From NCBI RefSeq assembly GCF_016026235.1, contig NZ_CP065613.1: 64,000 nt of DNA, one strand, 5' to 3'. Of this stretch, positions 6,385 through 51,699 are shown one piece after another. Within the stretch, counting starts at the first letter, position 1, and each line of letters opens with the position of its first letter. A model generated the notes under the pieces. The model was not told where the DNA came from. It saw nothing but the letters and a program-made list of their open reading frames with translations, and searched no databases. A program made the position numbers and the translations under genes. The DNA comes from Escherichia coli (lineage in GTDB: Bacteria > Pseudomonadota > Gammaproteobacteria > Enterobacterales > Enterobacteriaceae).

Positions 6385-6470
6385 GCCGCTGACGCGACTT
6401 ATCAGGCCTACGGGTGTACTGAACTGTAGGTCGGATAAGACGCATGGCGTCGCATCCGACAACAATCCCG
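6385..6470. repeat. BIME made of two inverted REP elements in the prpB-prpC spacer
   Basis: gcctgatgcg...cttatcaggcctac and gtaggtcggataag...gcatccgac palindromic units. Confidence 0.7.
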
Positions 6471-11045: not shown

Positions 11046-11693
11046 GTATTGTCGGATGCGTCGCGTGGCGCATCCGACACCATGCGCCGATGCCTGATGC
11101 GACGCAGACGCGTCTTATCATGCCTACAGGCCTGAACCGTAGGTCGGATAAGGCGCTCGCGTCGCATCCGACACCCCGCGCCGATGCCTGATGCGACGCT
11201 GGCGCGTCTTATCATGCCTACAGGTCTGAACCGTAGGTCGGATAAGGCGCTCGCGCCGCATCCGACACCGTGCGCCGATGCCTGATGCGACGCAGACGCG
11301 TCTTATCATGCCTACAGGTCTGAACCGTAGGTCGGATAAGGCGCTCGCGCCGCATCCGACACCATGCGCCGATGCCTGATGCGACGCAGGCGCGTCTTAT
11401 CATGCCTACAGGCCTGAACCGTAGGTCGGATAAGGCGCTCGCGCCGCATCCGACACCGTGTGCCGATGCCTGATGCGACGCTGATGCGTCTTATCATGCC
11501 TACAGGCCTGAACCGTAGGTCGGATAAGGCGCTCGCGCCGCATTCGACACCATGCGCCGATGCCTGATGCGACGCAGGCGCGTCTTATCATGCCTACAGG
11601 CCTGAACCGTAGGTCGGATAAGGCGCTCGCGCCGCATCCGACACCGTGCGCAGTTGCCTGATGCGACGCTTACCGCGTCTTATCATGCCTGCC
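11046..11693. repeat. Tandem BIME/REP array, about 7 copies of a 94-bp unit
   Basis: Unit cgcatccgacacc...gtaggtcggataaggcgctcgcg recurs at 11069, 11163 and then every 94 bp; this produces four spurious 61-aa ORFs. Confidence 0.85.
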
Positions 11694-14377: not shown

Positions 14378-14420
14378 TCGGCTGGGCTGTGTGTTGACAA
14401 AGCGAGCGTAGTTTATGCCG

Positions 14421-14496
14421 GATGCGGCGTGAACGCCTTATCCGGCCTACGTAGAGCACTGAACTCGTAGGCCTGATAAGCGTAGCGCATCAGGCA
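14421..14496. repeat. REP pair (BIME) downstream of codA
   Basis: gccggatgcggcgtgaacgccttatccggcctacg and its inverted partner. Confidence 0.7.
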
Positions 14497-17897: not shown

Positions 17898-17962
17898 CGG
17901 ATGCGGCTAATGTAGATCGCTGAACTTGTAGGCCTGATAAGCGCAGCGTATCAGGCAATTTT
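17898..17962. repeat. REP element between cynX and lacA
   Basis: gccggatgcggc...gtaggcctgataagcgcagcgtatcaggc. Confidence 0.65.
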
Positions 17963-33470: not shown

Positions 33471-33920
<450 letters not shown>

Positions 33921-35877: not shown

Positions 35878-35970
35878 GATGCCTGATGCGACGCTTACGC
35901 GTCTTATCATGCCTACGGCTCATGGGCGAAATGTAGGCCGGATAAGGCGTTCACGCCGCATCCGGCAGTT
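35878..35970. repeat. REP pair (BIME) between yaiL and frmB
   Basis: gcctgatgcgacgc...cttatcatgcctac and gtaggccggataaggcg...gcatccggc. Confidence 0.7.
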
Positions 35971-38402: not shown

Positions 38403-38445
38403 ATAACACTGGAGAATAATTGTTGTCCGAAGCCTAACCAGGTGA

Positions 38446-38473
38446 ACGGTCCCTCAAGACAGATGGGGACCGT
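38446..38473. other. Hairpin acggtccc/gggaccgt immediately downstream of afuC; possible transcriptional insulator between the afu cluster and the frmR promoter
   Basis: 8-bp stem with 12-nt loop; no clear U-tract on the afu strand. Confidence 0.3.
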
Positions 38474-38486
38474 TTATGTGCTATTT

Positions 38487-39533
38487 TTATGCCGCATCCG
38501 CTAAAACAAACATCCCGTAAGGATGGATTTCGAGGTAATAGTGCTCACCAATATCGGGCTGTAAACGGGTGGCGTTTACTTGTAATAAAATCTCCTGTCC
38601 ATGCCACTCTACGGTCACTTCGTACTGCGGCCCCATGTAGGCGACATGGCGAATAACACAACGCTGACTCTCTTCGCCGTGATTGCTTAAGGTGATGGCT
38701 TCCGGGCGAACGCCGACGGTGCCGCTACCTTGCGCCGGGAAATGCGCCGCGCGCGGCAGGCGATAACCGTAGATATCGACATACTCTTCGCTAAAGTTCG
38801 CCGGGAACAGGTTGGCGTCGCCCATAAAACTTGCCATAAAGCGGGAGGCTGGCTGACGATAGAGCTCCTGCGGTGAGCCAATCTGCATGATGTGACCTTT
38901 ATTCATCACCAGCACAGTGTCGGACACCGCGAAAGCTTCACTTTGATCGTGAGTGACGTAGAGCGACGTGATATTAAACTGCTTTTGCAGCTCGCGGATC
39001 TTATCGCGCATACTGCGGCGCAGGTTGGCATCGAGGTTACTTAACGGCTCATCAAACAGCAGCACCTTTGGCTTGAGGATCAACGCGCGGGCCAGTGCCA
39101 CTCGCTGTTGCTGACCACCGGAAATCTGATCGACATAGCGGTCCTCGAAGCCTTCCAGATCCACCATTGCCAGCGCCTCCTTCACCCGCTGTTTCACTTC
39201 GCTACGCGAGACGCCAAGCATCTTCAGCCCGTAGCCAACGTTTTCACCCAGCGACATATGCGGGAACAGAGCGTATGACTGAAACACCATGCAGATATCG
39301 CGCTGTTGAATGGAACGATGCGTGACATCTTCGCCATCAATAAAAATTTGCCCTTCGCTCGGTTTTTCCAGCCCGGCAACCAGACGCAAAATGGTGGTTT
39401 TGCCACAGCCGGAAGGACCGAGCAGCGTCACCATTTGCCCTTGTGGAATGGTGAGATTGATATTGTCGATAACCGTATTACTGCCGAATCGTTTAGTGAC
39501 GTTGCGCAGTTCAACAAAATTTTTCTGACTCAT
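38487..39533 (-). CDS. afuC: ABC transporter ATP-binding subunit (AfuC/FbpC-type), about 348 aa
   Basis: Walker [13 protein letters not shown] signature [12 protein letters not shown], Walker B LLFDEP; start at MSQKNF, with an alternative ATG at 39545 overlapping the afuB stop. Confidence 0.85.
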
Positions 39534-39544
39534 ATTGCGCTCCA

Positions 39545-41623
39545 TTACGCCTGGTTTTTGGCTTTAGAACGGGAGATACGAGCTTCTCCGATCAGCCAGT
39601 CAAAGAGGAAAATAATCGCCAGCATCACCACGATCAGAATCGAACCATAGGCGATGGCTACGCCATATTCGCCGTCTTCAACGCGGTTAAGAATGTAGGC
39701 GGTTGCCACGCGGGTGTCCGGCGTGACGAGAAAGACGATGGCGCTGACCGTCGTGATGGCCCGCACAAAGCTGTAGATCAGGGCCGAGAGAATGGCCGGA
39801 CGCAGCAGCGGCAGTAAAATGTGGGTTATGGTTCGCAAGGAACCCGCGCGCAGGCTGAGTGAGGCTTCATCCAGCGATTTGTCGATCTGCCCCAGACCCG
39901 CAATCCCGGCGCGAATACCCACCGGAACGTTACGCATCACCATCGAGATAATCACAATTGCCGCCGTTCCGGTGAGATAAACCGGAGCGCTGTTAAAGGC
40001 AAGAATATACGAAACGCCCGCCACCGTACCCGGTACGGCAAAGCACAGCATGGTGGTGAACTCGATGGTCTTTTTGCCTTTGAATTGTTGACGCACCACC
40101 ACCCAGGCGATGAGCAGGCCAAAGATAGCGGTAATGGGAGCGGCAATCCCGGCGTAGAGCAGGGTATCCAGCAGTGAAGGCCACGCGCCGTCGCTCATTC
40201 CCTGACCAAATAGCTTGATAAAGTTATCCAGCGTCAGGGTGTAGTCCACGCCCCAGTTCACCGTGAAGCTGCCGTAGAAAATGCTGCCGTAGAGCAGGGC
40301 GTTAAAGGCAATCCATATCGCAAGTATGGCGACCACGCTCCACACCAGGGTGACCGGTAGCGGCTGGACGTCGCCACGGTAGGATTTGCCGGAAACCGTG
40401 ACGTAAGAGCGTTTACCAATCCACATATACTGGATGCAGAACACCAGCAGCGAGAACAGCAGCAGGAAAGCGCCAAGGGTGCTGGCGGCCTGATAATCCA
40501 GCTGCGAGCCGGTAATATAGAAGTAAATTTGCGTCGCCAGTACGTCGAAGTTACCGCCAAGTACCAGCGGGTTACTGAAATCAGCCAGTGACTGTACCAC
40601 GACGATTAAAAAGGCATTGGCGAGTGCGGGCTTCAACAACGGCACAAACACGCCGTTAAAGGTTTGCCAGCGGCTGGCGCGCAGGGTGTAGGAGGCCTCT
40701 TCCAGCGAGGGATGAATGGTTTTAATGGCCCCGTCGAGGATCATAAATGCCATTGGCGTGAATGCCAGAACCTGTGCCAGCCAGATCCCGGTAAAACCGT
40801 ACAGCCAGTTGGTGTTGGTCAGCCCAAACCACTCCACCATAAATTCCGTAACATAGCCGGAGCGCCCCATCATGAGCGTCACGCCTAAGCCGACCACAAA
40901 CGGTGGCGTAACGATGGGCAAAATGGAAAAGATGCGACCAATAATGGCGCTGCGTTTAGCGATGCGCGTGGTATAAATCGCCAGCACCAGGCCGAAGAAA
41001 GTACAGCCTATCCCCACCGCTATCGACAAGACGATAGAGTTGACGATCACCTGAACAATATGTGCCTGCGAGAGCACGGTCATAAACGCCAGCGGGGCGA
41101 ACTCTCCCGCGTCGTTGGTGAACATCGGGATAAAAATGGCGATGCTCGGCCAGACGATAAAAATGCCAATCAGCGCCACAATCGCAATCAGTGAGCCGAT
41201 CACGAAGCGGTCGCCACCCAGCCATTCGAGGCGGGTTAAGGCCAGCGTCATAATCGCGCCTAGTTCGACAAACAGCACGATGGCGGCGTAGCCTAAACCG
41301 CGTCCAACCACGGTGGCGCTGATGACGATAAACGCCATACAGAGCAATGCCCAGCCGGCATCGAAATAATGACGGCTACGTTGTTCGCGCGTGGCCTCAC
41401 TAAACGGGCGGACCAGCAACAGGCTCGGGAGTAAATACCACAGCCAGCTGATATTAAAATGCGACCAGCCGTACGCCCCGAGGATCTCATCACTCGTGGA
41501 CTCCAGCAGGCCATAATCGAGGCTCCAGCTCGGCAACAGTATAAATGCCAGCCAGCCCAGCAAAACCCAAAGGAAAATCGCATCCCGCTTTTTCACGGGA
41601 TGGAGTGCAAGTGTCTGTGACAT
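39545..41623 (-). CDS. afuB: ABC transporter permease, fused two-domain type (AfuB/FbpB-like), 692 aa
   Basis: 692-aa polytopic membrane protein with duplicated permease domains; lies between afuA and afuC. Confidence 0.85.
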
Positions 41624-41691
41624 AGCAGTTCCGGTATGGTTGGCCGGGGCAGGCGTTTGTGCTGCACCCGGAAAATACGCCTAATGCGGGT

Positions 41692-42723
41692 TTATTTACC
41701 CATCTTCACTTCGCTGACCCATTTATTAATCAATGCCTTACGAACATCCGTGGAACCATATTTATCCATGTCGTAGTTGATTAATTTCAGGTCGTCGAGC
41801 TTCAGTGAATTTGGCGACGTTTCGGCGGTGGTATTGGTCAGGATCTGATAAGACTTCCCTTTCTTCCACGCCAGTTCCTGAGCTTCTTTTGATAATACCC
41901 AGTCCACAAACAGTTTGGCGTTGTCGAGGTTGCGCGCGCCTTTCAGAATGCTGACGCCGCCAATTTCGTAGCCTGTACCTTCACACGGGGAAATCAACTC
42001 CAGCGGCGCGCCCTGTTCTTTTTCCAGCGAGTAGTCATGCAGGAAGCCAATACCAATCGCCGTTTCGCCACGGGCGGCGTTACGTGCCGGGGCTATGCCT
42101 GATTTGGTGTACTGAGAGACGTTGGCGTTCAGTTGTTTTAGATAATCAAAGGCCTGATCTTCCCCCCACAGCTGCGCAAAAGTAGCCAGGGCGGTGTAGG
42201 CAGTACCGGAACTTTGCGGATCGGCAATTTGAATTTCGCCTTTATATTCCGGTTTGGTGAGATCTTTCCAGCACTTCGGCACCGGCAGGTTTTTCTCTTT
42301 CAGACGATCGGTGTTTACGCCAAAACCGAGGATCCCCACATAAACGGCAGAGGACAGATTCCCTTTCACTTTTGCCGGATCGCGGAATTTCTCCATGATC
42401 TGCTCAAGGTTAGGGGATTTATACGCCTGTAGCAGGCCCATCTCGCCAGCCTGCGATTGTGGGTCTAAAGTGCCGCCGTACCAGACGTCAGCCTGGGGGT
42501 TTTTCTTTTCAGCATCGACTTTTGCCAGGGTGCTTCCGGAACCGTTGCGGATAAACGAGGTTTTTACATCATATTTCTCGCCAAACGCTTTGGTTTCGGC
42601 CTCACACATTTCATTGGTGGCGCTGCAATAGACCACCAGCCGGCCTTTTGCCTGCGCGGCACCCGTTAAAGTCGCCAGCGCAACGGCAGAAGCAATCAGA
42701 GTAGAGGTAAAGGTCATTTTCAT
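41692..42723 (-). CDS. afuA: Periplasmic substrate-binding protein (AfuA/FbpA-like), 343 aa
   Basis: Signal peptide MKMTFTSTLIASAVALATLTGAAQA; start at 42723, overlapping the stop of the upstream MFS gene by 2 nt. Confidence 0.8.
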   Translation of the reverse strand: MKMTFTSTLIASAVALATLTGAAQAKGRLVVYCSATNEMCEAETKAFGEKYDVKTSFIRNGSGSTLAKVDAEKKNPQADVWYGGTLDPQSQAGEMGLLQAYKSPNLEQIMEKFRDPAKVKGNLSSAVYVGILGFGVNTDRLKEKNLPVPKCWKDLTKPEYKGEIQIADPQSSGTAYTALATFAQLWGEDQAFDYLKQLNANVSQYTKSGIAPARNAARGETAIGIGFLHDYSLEKEQGAPLELISPCEGTGYEIGGVSILKGARNLDNAKLFVDWVLSKEAQELAWKKGKSYQILTNTTAETSPNSLKLDDLKLINYDMDKYGSTDVRKALINKWVSEVKMGK

Positions 42724-44036
42724 TGTTTTATCCTTCGAGCGTGAGTGGTGGTGATGCCCGCCATCAGTAACGGCATCAGCAGTAAACCCATAAGTACTGC
42801 GGCGACCGAGAGTAAACTGAACATTCCCGGCCAGCCGTAGCGTTCGATGACCAGCGACAGCGGCCAGCCTGCCAGCGCTGCGCCAAGGTAAGCGAACAGG
42901 CCGAGAAATCCGGTGATTGAACCCGCCGCAGCTTTGTGCCCACACTCCACCGCCGCAAGTCCAATCAGCATTTGTGGGCCAAAGACGAAAAAGCCCACGG
43001 TAAAAAAGCACACTGCCAGCAGAGCGTAGTGATGAACCGGTGCCAGCCACAGTGCGGCGACTGACACCATCAACCCCAACGTGAACAGCAAAATCATTGG
43101 CGCTCGTTGCCCGCTAAACAGCAAATCCGATCCCCATCCGGCAAATAACGCGCCGAGTAAGCCGCCCACTTCAAACAGCATTACCGTGGCGTTGGCGCTG
43201 AGCAGGTTGACACCGTGGCTTTCCGTCAGCCAGATATTGCCCCAGTCGTTAAGCGCAATCCGGATCACATAAACCAGTACATAAGAGACGCCCAGTAGCC
43301 AGATCAGCGGATTTTGCAGCATGGTGGTGCGCAACATTTGCCACAGCCCCATCGGCGGACTTTGTTGTTCCTGACGTAACTCCAGCGGATCGTGACGCCA
43401 GTGACCAACTGTCGGTAATCCCTCTTCCTGGGGCGTGCCTTTGAGTTGTAGCGTTAACCAGATCCCTAATGCCATGCTGATTATCCCCGGTGTCAGCATC
43501 GCGGCCTGCCAGCCCCACCAGTGGGCGGCAAAGGCGCTAATCAGCGGAATAATCGCTCCGCCAATGTTGATCGACATATTCCAGCAGCCCCACCAGAAAC
43601 CGCGCTCATTGCGTGAGTACCAGTGGGTCAGCAAGCGGGCACACGGTGGCCATCCCCAGCCCTGAAAAAAACCGTTCAGTGTCCAGACCACAAGCAGAAG
43701 CGTAAGTGATTCGCCAAAGGCAAACACCACGTTCAATAACCCGGTGGCGAACAAGCCGACGCCCATAAAACCGCGTTGTCCGTGGCTGTCATGCCACAGT
43801 CCGGCGGTAAATTTCGACAATCCGTAGCTGAGATAAAACAGCGAACCCAGCAGGCCAATGTCGCCTTTATCCAGTCCGAGGTCGGTTTGTAGCGCCGGAA
43901 GGACGTAATTCACGCTTTTTCGCGTCAGATAAAATGCGGCGTAGCCAATAATCATGCACATCAGCAATCGCGGACGTAATGTCCGGTAGCATTGATCAAT
44001 TTCTCTCGCTGAACGCGCGTGCATGGTTGTCTCCAT
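42720..44036 (-). CDS. UhpC-like MFS sugar-phosphate sensor/transporter, 438 aa
   Basis: MFS organophosphate:phosphate antiporter family; UhpC-like blocks FFQGWGWPPCARLLTHWYSRNERGFWW and FFVFGPQMLIGLAAVECGHKAAAGSITGF. Confidence 0.8.
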   Translation of the reverse strand: METTMHARSAREIDQCYRTLRPRLLMCMIIGYAAFYLTRKSVNYVLPALQTDLGLDKGDIGLLGSLFYLSYGLSKFTAGLWHDSHGQRGFMGVGLFATGLLNVVFAFGESLTLLLVVWTLNGFFQGWGWPPCARLLTHWYSRNERGFWWGCWNMSINIGGAIIPLISAFAAHWWGWQAAMLTPGIISMALGIWLTLQLKGTPQEEGLPTVGHWRHDPLELRQEQQSPPMGLWQMLRTTMLQNPLIWLLGVSYVLVYVIRIALNDWGNIWLTESHGVNLLSANATVMLFEVGGLLGALFAGWGSDLLFSGQRAPMILLFTLGLMVSVAALWLAPVHHYALLAVCFFTVGFFVFGPQMLIGLAAVECGHKAAAGSITGFLGLFAYLGAALAGWPLSLVIERYGWPGMFSLLSVAAVLMGLLLMPLLMAGITTTHARRIKQ

Positions 44037-44108
44037 GTTGCTGACTATATGAAAATGAAAGTGAAAGGGGATGAGAGAAAATCCGGGATACCTAAGACTT
44101 TTTCCTGG

Positions 44109-45650
44109 TTATCCGGCGATTTGTTGCAAAAATGTGGGCAAGTTAACAATTACCCGCGTGCCGTGCTGTTTTTCGAGCGTTAAGTCGCCGCCCAGGGCGC
44201 TGACGCGCTCACGCATCCCCTGAATGCCAAATCCGGCCATTTTCCCGCTGGCGATCCCCACACCGTTGTCGCTGACTTCCAGATGCAATACCTCTCCCTG
44301 CTGGCGCAGGATAATCGTCACTTCGCTGGCTTCGGCGTGTTTACAGATGTTATTGAGCAACTCCTGCAATAACCGATACAAGGTAAAGCGCACCGTTTCG
44401 TTTTCTGGTGTGGAGTTCAGTTGATAGGCAAACTGGCAATGAATGCCGCGTTCACTAAAGGCAAATTCATTAATCAGATGCAGCAACGCTTCGCGAAATG
44501 TCAGTTCATCAAGCGCGGGAGGCCGCAACTGGCGCAGCAATTGGCGGGTGGAGAGATGAATGCGGCGGGCGAGCTCATTGATTTGGCTGGCTGCGGATTG
44601 AATTTGCGCCGGATCACGCGCCCGCTTCACCAGTTGCGACTGGATCTGAATGGCGGTGATGTTCTGACCGATTTCGTCGTGCAGCTCTCGCGCCAGGTTT
44701 TTTCGCGTGTCCTCCTCGGTGTGGATCAGCTTTTCCGCCAATGCCCGCCGCGCTGCCAGCTCGGCCTCCAGCCGTTGTCGGTAATGGTGCAGGTTTAGCG
44801 CCAGATGTTGCTGGCGACTGATGGCAATGCCCAGGCCAATTCCCAGCAAGGCCTGGGTCGCGAGGAAAATCTCCAGCTCCACCAGGTTACTAAAGCCCAC
44901 GCCAATCTGGCGGGCGATGGTGATCATCATGCTGCCCAAAAGCCCGGAGAGTACGCCACCTTGCCAGCCAAATTTCCACGCCATCACCACATTGGGCAAA
45001 AAGACCACGATCAACAGCAGACGTTCAATTTCAGGTGACAGCACCATCTGAGTGCCGATACCAATAATAAAAAACAGGCTACACCAGATGATTAAAGAGG
45101 TACGCAAGGGGGGATTATGCGTATCGAGTCCCAGGAGCTGGTAGCGATGCTGCTGGCGCAGAAACTCAAAGATAAGATAGACAAACGGCGTCAGTAATAC
45201 GCCGCCGGTAAATGAGGTCAAACCCGGCAGCATTATTGGGCCTGACATAAAAGGGGAGAGCAGGGCGGTATTCAACAATGAAGCTGCCGTGACAGTGGCT
45301 AACAGCAACGTCAGACGCTGCCAGTAAAGTGGAAAACGGTGCCAGAAGTTTTGCGCGAGGAGGACAGGAAACAGGCTAATAACCGGCGTTGCCAGCATGA
45401 GATAACCGTTCAATAGCTGTTCACTATGGAGCCAGAACATCATCAGCAAAGGGGGGAGCACCAACGCAGGCCAGTAGCGGCGAGAGAGCAAAATAACAAG
45501 GGCGAGATAAACTCCCTGCGGGAGAAACAACACCGCCTGTTGACCGTTATTGGTCAGATAAAAGCTGAGCGTCCACAGCATCAGCCAGCCGGTTCCCCAG
45601 GCCAGCACAATAAACAGCGAAATCACCCAATGACGAAGATTGCGCGACAT
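44109..45650 (-). CDS. UhpB-like sensor histidine kinase (polytopic N-terminal domain, HisKA_3, HATPase), 513 aa
   Basis: H-box LARELHDEIGQ, C-terminal ATPase (EVSDNGVGI ... GFGIQGMRERV), about 8 TM helices. Confidence 0.8.
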   Translation of the reverse strand: MSRNLRHWVISLFIVLAWGTGWLMLWTLSFYLTNNGQQAVLFLPQGVYLALVILLSRRYWPALVLPPLLMMFWLHSEQLLNGYLMLATPVISLFPVLLAQNFWHRFPLYWQRLTLLLATVTAASLLNTALLSPFMSGPIMLPGLTSFTGGVLLTPFVYLIFEFLRQQHRYQLLGLDTHNPPLRTSLIIWCSLFFIIGIGTQMVLSPEIERLLLIVVFLPNVVMAWKFGWQGGVLSGLLGSMMITIARQIGVGFSNLVELEIFLATQALLGIGLGIAISRQQHLALNLHHYRQRLEAELAARRALAEKLIHTEEDTRKNLARELHDEIGQNITAIQIQSQLVKRARDPAQIQSAASQINELARRIHLSTRQLLRQLRPPALDELTFREALLHLINEFAFSERGIHCQFAYQLNSTPENETVRFTLYRLLQELLNNICKHAEASEVTIILRQQGEVLHLEVSDNGVGIASGKMAGFGIQGMRERVSALGGDLTLEKQHGTRVIVNLPTFLQQIAG

Positions 45651-46279
45651 TAATGCCCCGCCAGCAGATGGTGGTCGAGCGCAAAATGTACCAGTTCAAT
45701 GGTGCTATGGCAGTTCAGTTTTCCCAGCACATTGGCGCGATGCACATGTACCGTTTTATGACTGAGTTCGAGTTTAAAGGCGATCTCTTTAACGCTGTCT
45801 CCTTTGACCAGTAAATCAAACACTTCACGTTCTCGTGGGGTGAGAATTTCCAGCGCCTGGGCGGGTTGCCCGCCGCCGCGTAAAGCCCGAATCGCATCGG
45901 CACAGAGATAATGCCCGCCCAGCCCGACCGAGCGCACCGCCTGCACTAACTCTTCCGGCCCACAGCGTTTGGTTAAATACCCGCTGGCACCGGCATCCAG
46001 CGCGCTTTGCACAAAGGTTGGCGCGTCATAAATGCTAAGAATAATGGCGCGAAATTGCGGTTTTTGTGCACGCAGGCGCTTAAGCAAACTGAGGCCGTTT
46101 TCGTCCGGCATGGCAATATCAATGACGGCAACATTGACGTCATCACGGATTAATGCCGACCATGCCTGCGCGGCACTACTGTACTGACCAATGACCTCCA
46201 GATCGTCTTCCAGAGAGAGTAATTGTGCGAAGCCAGAGCGCACCACCACATGGTCATCCACCAGCACTACCCGAATCAT
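45650..46279 (-). CDS. UhpA-like response regulator (NarL/FixJ family, LuxR-type HTH), 209 aa
   Basis: Receiver domain VVLVDDHVVVRSGF ... DIAMPDENG; C-terminal LTPREREVF ... SHKTVHVHRANVLGKL. Confidence 0.85.
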   Translation of the reverse strand: MIRVVLVDDHVVVRSGFAQLLSLEDDLEVIGQYSSAAQAWSALIRDDVNVAVIDIAMPDENGLSLLKRLRAQKPQFRAIILSIYDAPTFVQSALDAGASGYLTKRCGPEELVQAVRSVGLGGHYLCADAIRALRGGGQPAQALEILTPREREVFDLLVKGDSVKEIAFKLELSHKTVHVHRANVLGKLNCHSTIELVHFALDHHLLAGH

Positions 46280-46581
46280 ACTTTTCTTCTCTTATTATCT
46301 AATTCTCCTATCATGCATCACGGCGCGGCGCTGGCAATCAACCAGCGACAGATATGGAATGGATGTAACAAAATGGCAATAATTTGCCGGAGCGCGCACA
46401 TCTTATCTGGCTTGTGAACCGGCGGGATACGTTCGCCAAAACCGCAAAATGCGCAAACTCGCTAACCATTGCCGATTTTTTTCTAAAAACGCTTTGTTCT
46501 TAACAAGACCTTTTAATTCCTTTATCAAACTGACCCGCAACGAAATACTGCTCCCATAACAAGACAGGGGAGCAGACAATC

Positions 46582-48324: not shown

Positions 48325-49148
48325 GTGTGCTCATTAATGAAAAACTGCATTCGCGGCGGCTGAAATGGCGCTGGCCGCTCTCGCGTCAGGTGACCTTAAG
48401 CATTGGCACGTTAGCGGTTTTACTCACTGTATGGTGGACGGTGGCGGCGCCGCAACTGATTAGCCCGCTGTTTTTGCCGCCGCCGCAACAAGTACTGGCA
48501 AAACTGCTCACCATTGCCGGACCGCAGGGATTTATGGACGCCACGCTGTGGCAGCATCTGGCAGCCAGCCTGACGCGCATTGTGCTGGCGCTACTCGCGG
48601 CGGTGTTGATCGGCATTCCGGTCGGGATCGCCATGGGGCTAAGCCCGACGGTGCGCGGCATTCTGGATCCGGTAATCGAACTTTATCGTCCGGTGCCGCC
48701 GCTGGCTTATTTACCACTGATGGTGATCTGGTTTGGTATTGGCGAAACCTCGAAGATCTTACTGATCTATTTAGCGATTTTTGCGCCGGTGGCGATGTCG
48801 GCGCTGGCAGGGGTGAAAAGCGCGCAGCAGGTTCGCATTCGTGCCGCCCAGTCGCTGGGTGCCAGCCGTGCGCAGGTGCTGTGGTTTGTCATTTTGCCCG
48901 GCGCGCTGCCGGAAATCCTCACCGGATTACGCATTGGTCTGGGGGTGGGCTGGTCTACCCTGGTAGCGGCGGAGCTGATTGCCGCGACGCGCGGTTTAGG
49001 ATTTATGGTTCAGTCAGCGGGTGAATTTCTCGCGACTGACGTGGTGCTGGCGGGGATCGCGGTGATTGCGATTATCGCCTTTCTTTTAGAACTGGGTTTG
49101 CGCGCGTTACAGCGCCGACTGACGCCCTGGCATGGAGAAGTACAATGA
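48321..49148 (+). CDS. tauC: Taurine ABC transporter permease, 275 aa
   Basis: 6-TM BPD permease; 4-nt overlap with tauB. Confidence 0.95.
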
Positions 49149-49996
49149 GTGAACGTCTGAGCATTACCCCGCTGGGGCCGTATATTGGCGCACAAATTTC
49201 GGGTGCCGACCTGACGCGCCCGTTAAGCGATAATCAGTTTGAACAGCTTTACCATGCGGTGCTGCGCCATCAGGTGGTGTTTCTGCGCGATCAAGCTATT
49301 ACACCGCTGCAGCAACGCGCGCTGGCCCAGCGTTTTGGCGAACTGCATATTCACCCTGTTTACCCTCATGCCGAAGGGGTTGACGAGATCATCGTGCTGG
49401 ATACCCATAACGATAATCCGCCAGATAACGACAACTGGCATACCGATGTGACATTTATTGAAACGCCACCCGCAGGGGCGATTCTGGCAGCGAAAGAGTT
49501 ACCTTCGACCGGCGGCGATACGCTCTGGACCAGCGGTATTGCGGCCTATGAGGCGCTCTCTGTTCCCTTCCGCCAACTGCTGAGCGGGCTGCGTGCGGAG
49601 CATGATTTTCGTAAATCGTTCCCGGAATACAAATACCGCAAAACAGAGGAGGAACATCAACCCTGGCGCGAGGCGGTCGCGAAAAACCCGCCGTTGCTAC
49701 ATCCGGTGGTGCGAACGCATCCGGTGAGCGGTAAACAGGCGCTGTTTGTGAATGAAGGCTTTACTACGCGAATTGTTGATGTGAGCGAGAAAGAGAGCGA
49801 AGCCTTGTTAAGTTTTTTGTTTGCCCATATCACCAAACCGGAGTTTCAGGTGCGCTGGCGCTGGCAACCAAATGATATTGCGATTTGGGATAACCGCGTG
49901 ACCCAGCACTATGCCAATGCCGATTACCTGCCACAGCGACGGATTATGCATCGGGCGACGATTCTTGGGGATAAACCGTTTTATCGGGCGGGGTAA
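49145..49996 (+). CDS. tauD: Taurine dioxygenase (Fe/2-oxoglutarate dependent), 283 aa
   Basis: TauD/TfdA family HxD...H triad (WHTDVTF). Confidence 0.95.
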
Positions 49997-50001
49997 TACG
50001 A

Positions 50002-50126
50002 GAGTGGACGGTCCCCTTGAGCGGCGAAAGAACGTTGATATAGATGAAGCGAGTGCGGACGGTCCACTCAAGCGGCGAAAGAACGGTGATATAGATGAAA
50101 CGAGTGCGGACGGTCCCCTCGCCCCC
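50002..50126. repeat. Tandem direct repeat, about 2.5 copies of a 49-51 bp unit, in the tauD-hemB convergent spacer
   Basis: gagtg(c)ggacggtcc..tcaagcggcgaaagaacg.tgatatagatgaa.c at 50002, 50051 and 50102. Confidence 0.8.
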
Positions 50127-50141
50127 TTGGGGTTAGGGTGA

Positions 50142-50180
50142 GGGGGAGTTCACTGTACTTTCAATAGGTTAACTCCCCCC
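50142..50180. terminator. GC-rich hairpin (GGGGGAGTT / AACTCCCCC) between convergent tauD and hemB; candidate bidirectional terminator
   Basis: 9-bp perfect stem with a 20-nt loop. Confidence 0.4.
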
Positions 50181-50199
50181 ATCGGAAGGCGTAAAAGTA

Positions 50200-51174
50200 T
50201 TAACGCAGAATCTTCTTCTCAGCCAGATCCAGCGCAAAGTAGCTGAAAATCAGATCCGCACCTGCACGCTTAATCGAACCTAAGCTTTCGAGCACCACTT
50301 TCTCTTCATCTATAGCACCCGCCAGCGCGGCGAACTTAATCATCGCGTACTCACCGCTCACCTGATACGCGCCAATCGGCAATTCAGTACGTTCACGCAG
50401 CTCACGCACGATGTCGAGGTACGCTCCAGCAGGTTTAACCATCAGGCAGTCTGCGCCCTGGGCTTCATCCAGCAGTGACTCACGAATCGCCTCACGACGG
50501 TTCATTGGGTTCATCTGATAGCTTTTGCGGTCGCCTTTTAATGCGCTTCCGGCAGCTTCACGGAACGGGCCATAAAAGGAGGAGGCGAACTTGGTCGAAT
50601 ACGACATAATCGCCGTATCTTTAAAGCCCGCAGCGTCCAGCGCCTGGCGAATTGCCTGTACCTGGCCGTCCATCGCGGCGGAAGGGGCGATGAAGTCTGC
50701 GCCTGCAGCAGCTGCAACCACGGCTTGCTTGCCTAAATTTTCCAGAGTCGCGTCGTTGTCGACGCCATGCTCGCACAGCACACCGCAGTGACCGTGAGAA
50801 GTGTATTCACAGAAACAAGTGTCTGACATGACGATCATTTCTGGCACAGTCTGCTTGCAGATGCGCGACATACGCGCCACCAGTCCATCTTCCCGCCAGG
50901 CGTCGCTGCCGGTTTCATCGGTATGGTGAGAGATGCCGAAAGTCATCACGGAACGAATACCGGCGTTGGCGATGCGTTCAATTTCGCGTGCCAGATGTTT
51001 CTCTGGAATGCGCATCACGCCTGGCATGGCTTCAACGGCTTTGTAGTCGTCAATTTCTTCTTCAACAAAGATCGGCAACACCAGGTCGTTAAGGCTAAGT
51101 GTTGTCTCTTCAAACATAGCGCGCAGCGCAGGAGATTTGCGCAGGCGACGAGGGCGTTGGATTAAGTCTGTCAT
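50200..51174 (-). CDS. hemB: Porphobilinogen synthase (delta-aminolevulinate dehydratase), 324 aa
   Basis: Start at [13 protein letters not shown]; ALAD family. Confidence 0.95.
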
Positions 51175-51699
51175 GGTCTGCCTGATGTTTGTGGAATTAA
51201 GGTGCACAGTATACCTGAAGCGGGGCAGGAGTGTTTTACGAAAGTTGTCGTGATGTTGACAAGAAGAGAATGAAAGAGAGACCAGGACATCTTTGTAATA
51301 GAAATAGCAATAATTTCATATTCACTGAAAATATTTTTAATTTTTATTTATAGCCATAGATTATTGTTTTTGGGGATTTGGTGACGTTTTCAAAAAGTGA
51401 ATAACTTAAAGTTCATTGCTTATTGATACATTATTTGTCTGTTTTAGTTGTTTTATATTTTCATGGTCTATGTTTTAAAATTAACGCTTTCATTAACGTA
51501 TTGAAATATTGTGTTTTTGTTATTTATTTCTGTGTGTGTGTTCACGTGCTTTATATATGTCCGCAATCGGACTTAGGGGAAAGAATAATTGAACCATTCC
51601 TCTATAACGCCGCATAATCGTCAACGCGAAACATAATATGTTTTCTATGCATTGATAATTGATGGATCAACTTATTACGTCCCTGAGGAGGGATGACAA

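Follow-up and report, generated by a model that had tools for sequence, protein, structure and literature searches.

BoxC is a G/C-rich repeat that is dispersed through the intergenic regions of E. coli, has been on record as a family since the 1990s, and can adopt hairpin, intrastrand triplex or G-quadruplex folds in vitro. Several catalogues have described the family under different names. BoxC and the PIT element are the same as TMECO (Holder et al., 2015, NAR, PMC4666352), for which the core motif CCCTCNCCC-N3-6-GGGNGAGGG-N3-GGGNGAGGG was published (Holder et al., 2015). One member lies between the convergent genes tauD and hemB of K-12, where the spacer carries the 36-mer CCCTCGCCCCCTTGGGGAGAGGGTTAGGGTGAGGGG at 388664-388699; Holder et al. 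(2015) list this 36-mer in their Table 1 as TMECO no. 5, and the same tauD>>>/<<<hemB site is HPGQ no. 13, group 1, in a second catalogue, which lists it as a putative G-quadruplex/hairpin/duplex switch (Kaplan et al., 2016, NAR, PMC5100583). TMECO loci were found to be far more rearranged among E. coli strains than control intergenic sites (Holder et al., 2015). The same authors state that no stable triplex of BoxC was detected in vivo, and the link between structure and instability therefore stays correlative. As regards activity, the Maher laboratory work cited in Holder et al. (2015) is summarized there as having found neither promoter nor terminator activity in PIT elements.

Here, we describe the tauD-hemB spacer in a 64,000-nt stretch of E. 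coli DNA, hereafter referred to as the window. The spacer is very likely a composite of a decayed BoxC, a 51-bp minisatellite derived in part from the BoxC flank and a locus-specific hairpin, which together would constitute an unstable and probably neutral polymorphism. We found neither the 51-bp array nor the tripling of the BoxC left arm described in Holder et al. (2015) or Kaplan et al. (2016), both of which catalogue this locus.

Layout of the tauD-hemB spacer

The first-pass annotation of this DNA had placed a tandem repeat followed by a hairpin in the convergent tauD-hemB spacer, and this placement is borne out by the list of open reading frames (ORFs) and by the annotation of matching E. 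coli records (Table 1). The overall order of the array is A1-B1-A2-B2-A3, and A3 continues straight into the BoxC core. In terms of RNA, the spacer amounts to no more than the 3' UTRs of two convergent genes, which overlap there. The corresponding spacer of K-12 MG1655 is 106 bp long, reads TAA-TACGAGAGTGGACGGTC-CCCTCGCCCCCTTGGGGAGAGGGTTAGGGTGAGGGG-... and contains no full 51-bp unit.

Table 1. Features of the tauD-hemB spacer and its neighbours, in window coordinates.
Feature	Position	Strand	Sequence, source and remarks
tauD (taurine dioxygenase) CDS	49145-49996	+	stop TAA at 49994-49996; ORF list and annotation in matching E. coli records
A1, 20-nt segment resembling the BoxC left arm	49998-50017	+	ACGAGAGTGGACGGTCCCCT; identical to the sole A copy of K-12
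B1, 31-nt locus-specific segment	50018-50048	+	TGAGCGGCGAAAGAACGTTGATATAGATGAA; Tandem Repeats Finder and repeat search
A2, second segment resembling the BoxC left arm	50049-50068	+	GCGAGTGCGGACGGTCCACT; repeat search and weight matrix
B2, second 31-nt segment	50069-50099	+	CAAGCGGCGAAAGAACGGTGATATAGATGAA; identical to B2 of Escherichia sp. E1V33
BoxC (PIT/TMECO/HPGQ), degenerate copy	50100-50146	+	orthologous to K-12 388664-388699
BoxC left arm, A3	50100-50119	+	
BoxC core	50116-50146	+	CCCTCGCCCCCTTGGGG(6 nt missing)TTAGGGTGAGGGGG
BoxC remnant hairpin	50115-50124 / 50136-50145		CCCCTCGCCC/GGGTGAGGGG; inverted-repeat search
Locus-specific (G5/C5) hairpin	50142-50179	both	GGGGGAGTTCAC / GTTAACTCCCCC, 14-nt loop; inverted-repeat search and folding
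hemB (porphobilinogen synthase) CDS	50200-51174	-	stop is the complement of 50200-50202; ORF 50200-51207; the 975-nt hemB annotated in FDAARGOS_943 maps here

A 51-bp tandem repeat that includes the BoxC left arm

Tandem Repeats Finder (TRF) returns a single array at 49998-50120, with a period of 51, 2.4 copies, 87% matches, 0 indels and a score of 197. In agreement with this result, a repeat search places the starts of the 20-nt unit at 49998, 50049 and 50100, exactly 51 nt apart, and a 30-nt core of the unit is present at two places in the window, whereas 100 shuffles gave an expectation of 0. Thus, the tandem array first reported as two and a half copies stands, and its period, initially given as a range of 49-51 bp, is exactly 51. 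Each unit consists of segment A (20 nt, ACGAGTGCGGACGGTCCCCT) followed by segment B (31 nt, CAAGCGGCGAAAGAACGGTGATATAGATGAA). The units of one array differ at 7-8 of their 51 positions (84-86% identical), and the two units of the window at 8.

Segment A was compared with the 14 other type-A BoxC copies of K-12, lined up on the core, in which the 24 nt preceding CCCTCGCCCC are conserved with the consensus atncAAAAacGnGCnCGaaCGGTC (..AAAAacGnGCnCGaaCGGTC). When the window was scored with a weight matrix built from these copies, the 24-mers ending in A1, A2 and A3 ranked 12th, 62nd and 16th among 127,952; this identifies A as the BoxC left arm, of which A3 occupies the usual position and A1 and A2 are two extra copies. 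As in other type-A copies, the conserved left arm (..GnGCnCGaaCGGTC) stands directly before the C-rich stem in the window.

The array is itself a minisatellite (VNTR), a class of repeats that varies by slipped-strand mispairing: its unit is repeated head to tail and falls within the 10-100-bp size class of such repeats, it changes by whole units between related genomes, with 0, 1 or 2 copies among close relatives, and its breakpoints lie within the repeated segment. It differs from others of this class in having very few copies, whose divergence gives it the look of an old and decaying array rather than an actively expanding one, and in that the unit is partly borrowed from a dispersed repeat.

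A possible origin of B as a decayed BoxC core was rejected: in global alignments under two scoring schemes, with 2,000 shuffles and four B variants, z ranged from -2.0 to +0.07, i.e., no similarity beyond that of shuffled sequence. B resembles neither the BoxC core nor anything else. A coding role of the repeat is unsupported. The frame +1 to that of tauD has no stop codon within the units of any of the five alleles, yet this is likely a chance result because 51 nt correspond to 17 codons. Read in this frame, the units differ mostly by nonsynonymous changes (e.g., V/G/D at one codon), and the ORF list contains no independent start codon for it outside tauD.

The BoxC copy and its relation to known repeat classes

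Between the array and the G5/C5 hairpin lies a BoxC copy, including the hairpin CCCCTCGCCC/GGGTGAGGGG, which the first-pass annotation had not recognized. The possibility that the unit would prove to belong to a known class turned out to be half correct, in that its first 20 nt and the sequence after the array are BoxC. The copy is orthologous to the catalogued BoxC/PIT/TMECO member of K-12, and the window aligns with K-12 on either side of the element. The distribution of the family is dispersed, multi-copy and intergenic: of the 5,426 complete E. coli genomes, 5,425 contain matches to a 57-nt K-12 query, at a median of 18 and a maximum of 34 places each, and all 14 of the K-12 BoxC loci that were compared are intergenic.

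The window copy shares with the described elements its chromosomal position (that of TMECO no. 5 and HPGQ no. 13), the left arm, the C-rich stem, the first loop and the last G block, as well as its intergenic setting, its membership in a dispersed multi-copy family and a locus that is rearranged between strains. Unlike them, it carries its left arm three times, within a minisatellite, and lacks 6 nt (AGAGGG) between the G runs, retaining three G tracts and one GGGNGAGGG block against two in the consensus. A pattern search with the published core motif, which the K-12 ortholog satisfies, gave 0 matches in the window. The window BoxC is therefore a decayed member of the family by descent rather than one that conforms to the motif. 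Lacking the middle G block, it is predicted to have lost triplex folding and four-tract G-quadruplex folding, an intramolecular G-quadruplex is not expected, and the hairpin alone would remain (-22.2 kcal/mol, z -1.7).

The AGAGGG deletion is common to the window and its nearest complete genome, FDAARGOS_943. A different 6-nt deletion, TGAGGG, is present in the BoxC core of Escherichia sp. E1V33, and the microhomology deletions in the BoxC G-blocks of these two lineages arose independently of each other. They speak for the same kind of slippage or recombination as the 51-bp steps described below.

Other intergenic repeat classes were also considered. REP elements and the BIMEs resemble the feature in being intergenic, located between convergent genes, palindromic and able to form tandem arrays, but the spacer has no similarity to the REP consensus. 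A search with this consensus (GCCGGATGCGGCG...CTTATCCGGCCTAC) yielded 7 full and 29 partial matches in the window and 0 between 49900 and 50300; BIME arrays occupy 11.1-11.6 kb and 33.5-33.9 kb. The original description of the repeat as non-REP therefore holds, even though REPs are abundant elsewhere in the window. For the ERIC/IRU central consensus, a search of the window that tolerated as many as 3 mismatches gave 0 matches. As to the RSA element (consensus of about 152 bp), a dispersed copy would be expected to recur, and the unit has no second location in the complete E. coli genomes.

Allele series across genomes

Three alleles account for 5,424 of the 5,426 complete E. coli genomes. The spacer is 39 bp long, with a small hairpin of its own and no BoxC, in 1,819 genomes; it contains BoxC only, as in K-12, in 3,367; and it contains one B unit in 238. 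Two B units were found in 0 of the complete genomes. About 96% of the complete genomes thus have no B, and about a third of all complete genomes have no BoxC at this locus altogether; where B is present, it is always single and always in the tauD-hemB spacer. Among 100,044 species representatives (one genome each), the sole match to B was Escherichia sp. E1V33, which has two units. Additionally, B occurs in one copy each in 12 metagenome contigs, 11 of which gave a tauD-hemB spacer with one unit; contig L022, in which the match lies 53 nt from the sequence end, was left out of the spacer set. Plasmid and phage collections contained no match to B. Hence, in the search of other genomes that had been suggested at the outset, B proved to be confined to the tauD-hemB spacer in all collections, and within these collections no genome other than Escherichia sp. 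E1V33 shares the two-unit allele of the window. Including the two stop codons, the spacer measures 112 nt with 0 B units, 158-164 nt with 1 and 209 nt with 2.

This distribution bears on the idea that B and one A represent a small MITE-like insertion, with the 20-nt A copies as its target-site duplications. Direct repeats do flank B, and B is carried by a minority of genomes, as might be anticipated for such an insertion. However, B occurs nowhere else in the complete E. coli genomes, the species representatives, the metagenome contigs, the plasmids or the phages; terminal inverted repeats were not found; the flanking A copies have diverged (6 of 20 positions between A1 and the last A of GE3); and target-site duplications are not known to reach 20 nt. 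An insertion of this kind is very unlikely.

The second unit of the window could instead be an artefact of assembly, i.e., a repeat that was mis-collapsed or mis-expanded, a suspicion raised by the closest complete genome, FDAARGOS_943, which has exactly one unit fewer. Against this, the units differ at 8 of 51 positions and so do not represent a duplicated read, and the independent assembly of E1V33, from a different species, also contains two diverged units. An assembly error of this sort is extremely unlikely.

When the alleles are put in register, the breakpoints of the 51-bp steps fall inside A, at points that differ from allele to allele. In PE164, the order is A1-B1-A2 followed by the core, and its A2 is identical to that of the window. 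In FDAARGOS_943, whose flanks are 99.6-99.9% identical to those of the window, A1-B1 is followed by a hybrid of the 5' end of A2 and the 3' end of A3, and then by the core. K-12 has A1 and then the core, and ET245 has an A1/A3 hybrid and then the core. Since the breakpoints inside A differ, several independent 51-bp events are needed to account for the series, and crossovers within A bear what appears to be the signature of slipped-strand mispairing or of unequal recombination between short direct repeats.

Regarding the age of the array, the flanking genes diverge by 3-5% between lineages, in comparison with the 7-8 differences per 51 positions between units of one array. The units have diverged more than the flanking genes, which argues for an old duplication and against a recent slip. 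We infer from this that at least part of the genus descends from a two-unit state, which is now being lost, i.e., that the direction of change is one of loss rather than gain.

In the composite explanation, A and B form a 51-bp minisatellite, A-B-A-B-A, upstream of the BoxC core, and the length of this array would shift in 51-bp steps through replication slippage or through unequal recombination between A copies. The adjoining structure-forming BoxC core probably promotes this slippage. In most E. coli, the array would have shrunk to A-B-A or to a single A, and the window would retain the rare two-unit allele. The BoxC copy itself has lost AGAGGG between its G runs and would now form the Watson-Crick hairpin only, and the locus-specific hairpin downstream of BoxC is the third part of the composite.

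The G5/C5 hairpin and transcription termination

The hairpin reported after the repeats is real and was recovered both by an inverted-repeat search and by folding. Its 12-nt arms (50142-50153 and 50168-50179; 92% complementarity) include GGGGGAGTT/AACTCCCCC, and the 5' arm begins within the last G run of BoxC. As RNA, it folds with -18.9 kcal/mol on the + strand and -19.1 kcal/mol on the - strand (z -3.3 and -3.1, respectively). The hairpin is kept in both right-hand haplotypes that contain BoxC (K-12 type and window type), and the differences between them are one-sided, a C to A change repairing a mismatch and a C to U change keeping a G-U pair.

In K-12, BoxC is paired with an inverted type-B partner at five loci, and the G5/C5 hairpin was considered as a vestige of such a partner; this could not be confirmed. 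The 28-nt linker is equal in length and not similar in sequence. The K-12 right flank CTCCCCCTTTCTGAGAGG weakly resembles the BoxC hairpin part (p ~0.005 before correction for 8 tests), and the right-hand haplotype of the window shows no resemblance to it.

As a stable hairpin located midway between convergent stop codons and folding equally well on both strands, the element recalls bidirectional intrinsic terminators. In contrast to these, no U tract follows the hairpin of the window allele on either strand, the next bases being CAUCGG (+) and UCACCC (-), and K-12 has just UUUCU on the tauD side. A scan found neither an intrinsic terminator, i.e., a stem-loop followed by a U tract, nor anything resembling one in the spacer, in line with the initial impression that this is not a simple terminator; a promoter consensus was likewise absent from the spacer when scanned. 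A further difference is that K-12 data indicate a Rho-dependent stop of the transcript running in the hemB direction. Specifically, a Rho termination region antisense to tauD was reported at K-12 388499 (minus strand), with a Rho score of 3.8 and a p value of 2e-9, mapped at a window resolution of ~800 nt in a strain devoid of B units (Adams et al., 2021, PMC7815308, Supplementary file 2), and neither hemB nor tauD has an entry in the curated 3'-end tables of the same study (Adams et al., 2021). In the direction of transcription, this region lies ~250 nt beyond the hemB stop codon. Thus, minus-strand transcripts, presumably starting at hemB, run through the spacer and are ended by Rho and not by the G5/C5 hairpin.

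In the minus-strand RNA downstream of hemB, the C/G ratio is 1.1-2.3 over ~290 nt in the window and over ~180 nt in K-12, whereas the background has a median of 1.0 and reaches 2.15 at its 99th percentile. Such a C-rich hemB-sense tract is compatible with Rho loading and may have been lengthened incidentally by the repeats. In the hemB-sense RNA, the hairpin is followed by the C-rich BoxC complement and then by the unstructured, pyrimidine-rich repeat; since K-12 has Rho-dependent termination of minus-strand transcription here, this tract would act as a Rho loading region.

If the lengthening were not incidental, the array would be functional in extending a C-rich unstructured tract for Rho loading, and the number of units would tune how far transcription from hemB runs antisense into tauD, a form of interference between convergent transcripts. 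The Rho termination region at 388499 (-) is in line with this proposal, as are the absence of an intrinsic terminator consensus, a minus-strand C/G ratio that rises to 2.1-2.3 over the repeats (close to or beyond the window's 99th percentile), the extension of the C>G tract from ~180 to ~290 nt, and the lack of structure in the units on the minus strand (z +0.83). Nevertheless, K-12 terminates by Rho with zero B units, B is missing in 96% of complete E. coli and BoxC in a third, a C>G skew predicts Rho loading sites poorly, and the termination data come from K-12, which does not carry the units. Overall, a function of this kind is unlikely. The narrower claim that unit number (0, 1 or 2) sets the efficiency or position of Rho-dependent termination between hemB and tauD is decidedly improbable. 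If it were true, each unit would add ~50 nt of unstructured, C-rich and G-poor RNA after the BoxC complement, and the alleles would amount to a natural copy-number "dial" of transcriptional interference created by BoxC-driven slippage.

Structured RNA and protein binding

Besides termination, two further roles had been put forward for the units, the first of them being a structured RNA, either a small RNA or a cis-regulatory element in the 3' UTR of tauD. Small RNAs commonly arise from 3' UTRs, of which the spacer is one, and as a whole the spacer folds somewhat better than shuffled sequences (z -2.8 and -2.6 on the + and - strands, respectively). However, this excess of stability stems from the two terminal hairpins, and structure prediction on both strands revealed no excess in single 51-nt units, which fold like shuffles (z -0.03 to +0.88). 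No Rfam 15 family reached its gathering threshold in the spacer; the best matches were at chance level (E 0.32-9.5, 11-20 bits against thresholds of 40-71). Moreover, the curated K-12 record annotates no non-coding RNA in the spacer, no promoter consensus is present, the substitutions between units are not compensatory, and the unit is missing from ~96% of complete E. coli. Taken together, these observations speak against the small-RNA proposal, and a structured RNA encoded or formed by the units is highly unlikely.

The second role is that of an iteron-like array of binding sites for a DNA-binding protein, with GGAC-G-GTCC providing the half-sites. The short inverted symmetry that had been noticed in each unit (cggacggtcc) does exist, as a palindrome in each A copy, and the regular 51-bp spacing would also suit such an array. 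Yet the palindrome is part of the BoxC left arm, and homologous arms at other loci have not retained it, reading, e.g., cacaatccgtc, gcgatcggtc or ctcggtcggtc. Furthermore, no gene is linked to the units, whose number varies from 0 to 2, and no regulatory target is evident between the convergent 3' ends. The protein-binding proposal is therefore not supported, and such an array is exceedingly unlikely.

Weight and use of the allele series

The composite of a decayed BoxC, a minisatellite and a hairpin carries little functional weight, as a known repeat family and an ordinary minisatellite account for the feature. The array is probably neutral, as argued from the absence of signal, and a 51-bp array of this sort is an ordinary kind of polymorphism beside a known repeat family. 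Its value lies rather in a clean natural series of alleles at one BoxC locus, from none to BoxC, to one unit and to two units. Including as it does two independent 6-nt deletions in the G-blocks, the series offers an example at the nucleotide level of the instability that Holder et al. (2015) linked statistically to the family, and suggests that the left arm of BoxC can itself be the repeat that recombines. The alleles constitute a ready-made set of constructs with which to ask whether BoxC promotes slippage. Additionally, they could be used to type rare Escherichia lineages.

Alternative spacers and spacer ends at tauD-hemB

The polymorphism between tauD and hemB is an either/or for the entire spacer and extends beyond the tandem repeat alone. 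A third of the complete E. coli genomes (1,819 of 5,426) carry a wholly different spacer of 39 bp, GGGGGAAATGCCGGGTTGGATAACCCGGCATAATGATCA, which contains a perfect 10-bp hairpin and from which BoxC is absent. The final ~20 nt of the spacer, to the right of the hairpin and up to the hemB stop codon, likewise occur as two haplotypes, compared here between window 50180-50199 and positions 2236-2253 of the K-12 tauD-hemB region (L001). The K-12-type haplotype reads TTTCTGAGAGGAAACAAAA, and that of the window, PE164 and E1V33 reads CATCGGAAGGCGTAAAAGTA; the two are apparently unrelated to each other. Only the K-12-type haplotype supplies a short U run 3' of the hairpin.

BoxC decay and possible further duplications

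Escherichia sp. E1V33 and the window are the sole two genomes found in which two repeat units are kept. The BoxC copy of E1V33 (L013 3480-3720) carries a 6-nt deletion, TGAGGG, in the last G block, and this deletion differs from that of the window. Therefore, judging from the two sequences, the triplex/G-quadruplex-capable core is predicted to have been disabled independently in each.

The BoxC left arm may also have been duplicated at loci other than tauD-hemB. The K-12 yjdP-phnP spacer (L010, 4314085-4314520) holds an extra left-arm-like segment, ACGAGCGCAAT (compare TCGAGCACAATCGGTC), together with a degenerate BoxC-like stretch, CGCCCCTCACCCCAATGGGGAGAGGG. An intact BoxC follows closely, its core about 70 nt downstream of these two segments.

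In K-12, the right flank of the tauD-hemB hairpin, CTCCCCCTTTCTGAGAGG (L001 2226-2243), has a weak similarity to CTCGCCCCTTTGGGGAGAGG, the C-stem/loop/G-stem part of BoxC (p about 0.005, uncorrected, with 8 tests made); this flank may be what is left of a second BoxC. The same comparison revealed no BoxC resemblance to the right of the hairpin in the window haplotype.

Wider differences and REP elements in the window

Upstream of the tau operon, the alignment shows that ~8 kb of the window (38420-46443) has no counterpart in the E1V33 contig. This contig is otherwise colinear with the window, with L013 1232-7256 corresponding to window 52466-46444 and, in a second block, L013 7332-9886 to window 38419-35867. 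On this alignment, the segment is best described as an indel or island relative to E1V33.

Two large arrays of REP pairs (BIMEs) are present elsewhere in the window, in addition to isolated REPs.

Coordinates of the 39-bp spacer example and of REP elements in the window
Feature	Location	Description	Source
39-bp tauD-hemB spacer, example	L032 1998-2036	E. coli M24	
BIME tandem array, REP pairs	window 11114-11622	six pairs, 94-bp period	REP consensus search
BIME tandem array, REP pairs	window 33474-33911	five copies, 101-bp period	REP consensus search
Scattered single REPs	window 6398-6439, 14417-14480, 17928-17941, 35903-35966		REP consensus search
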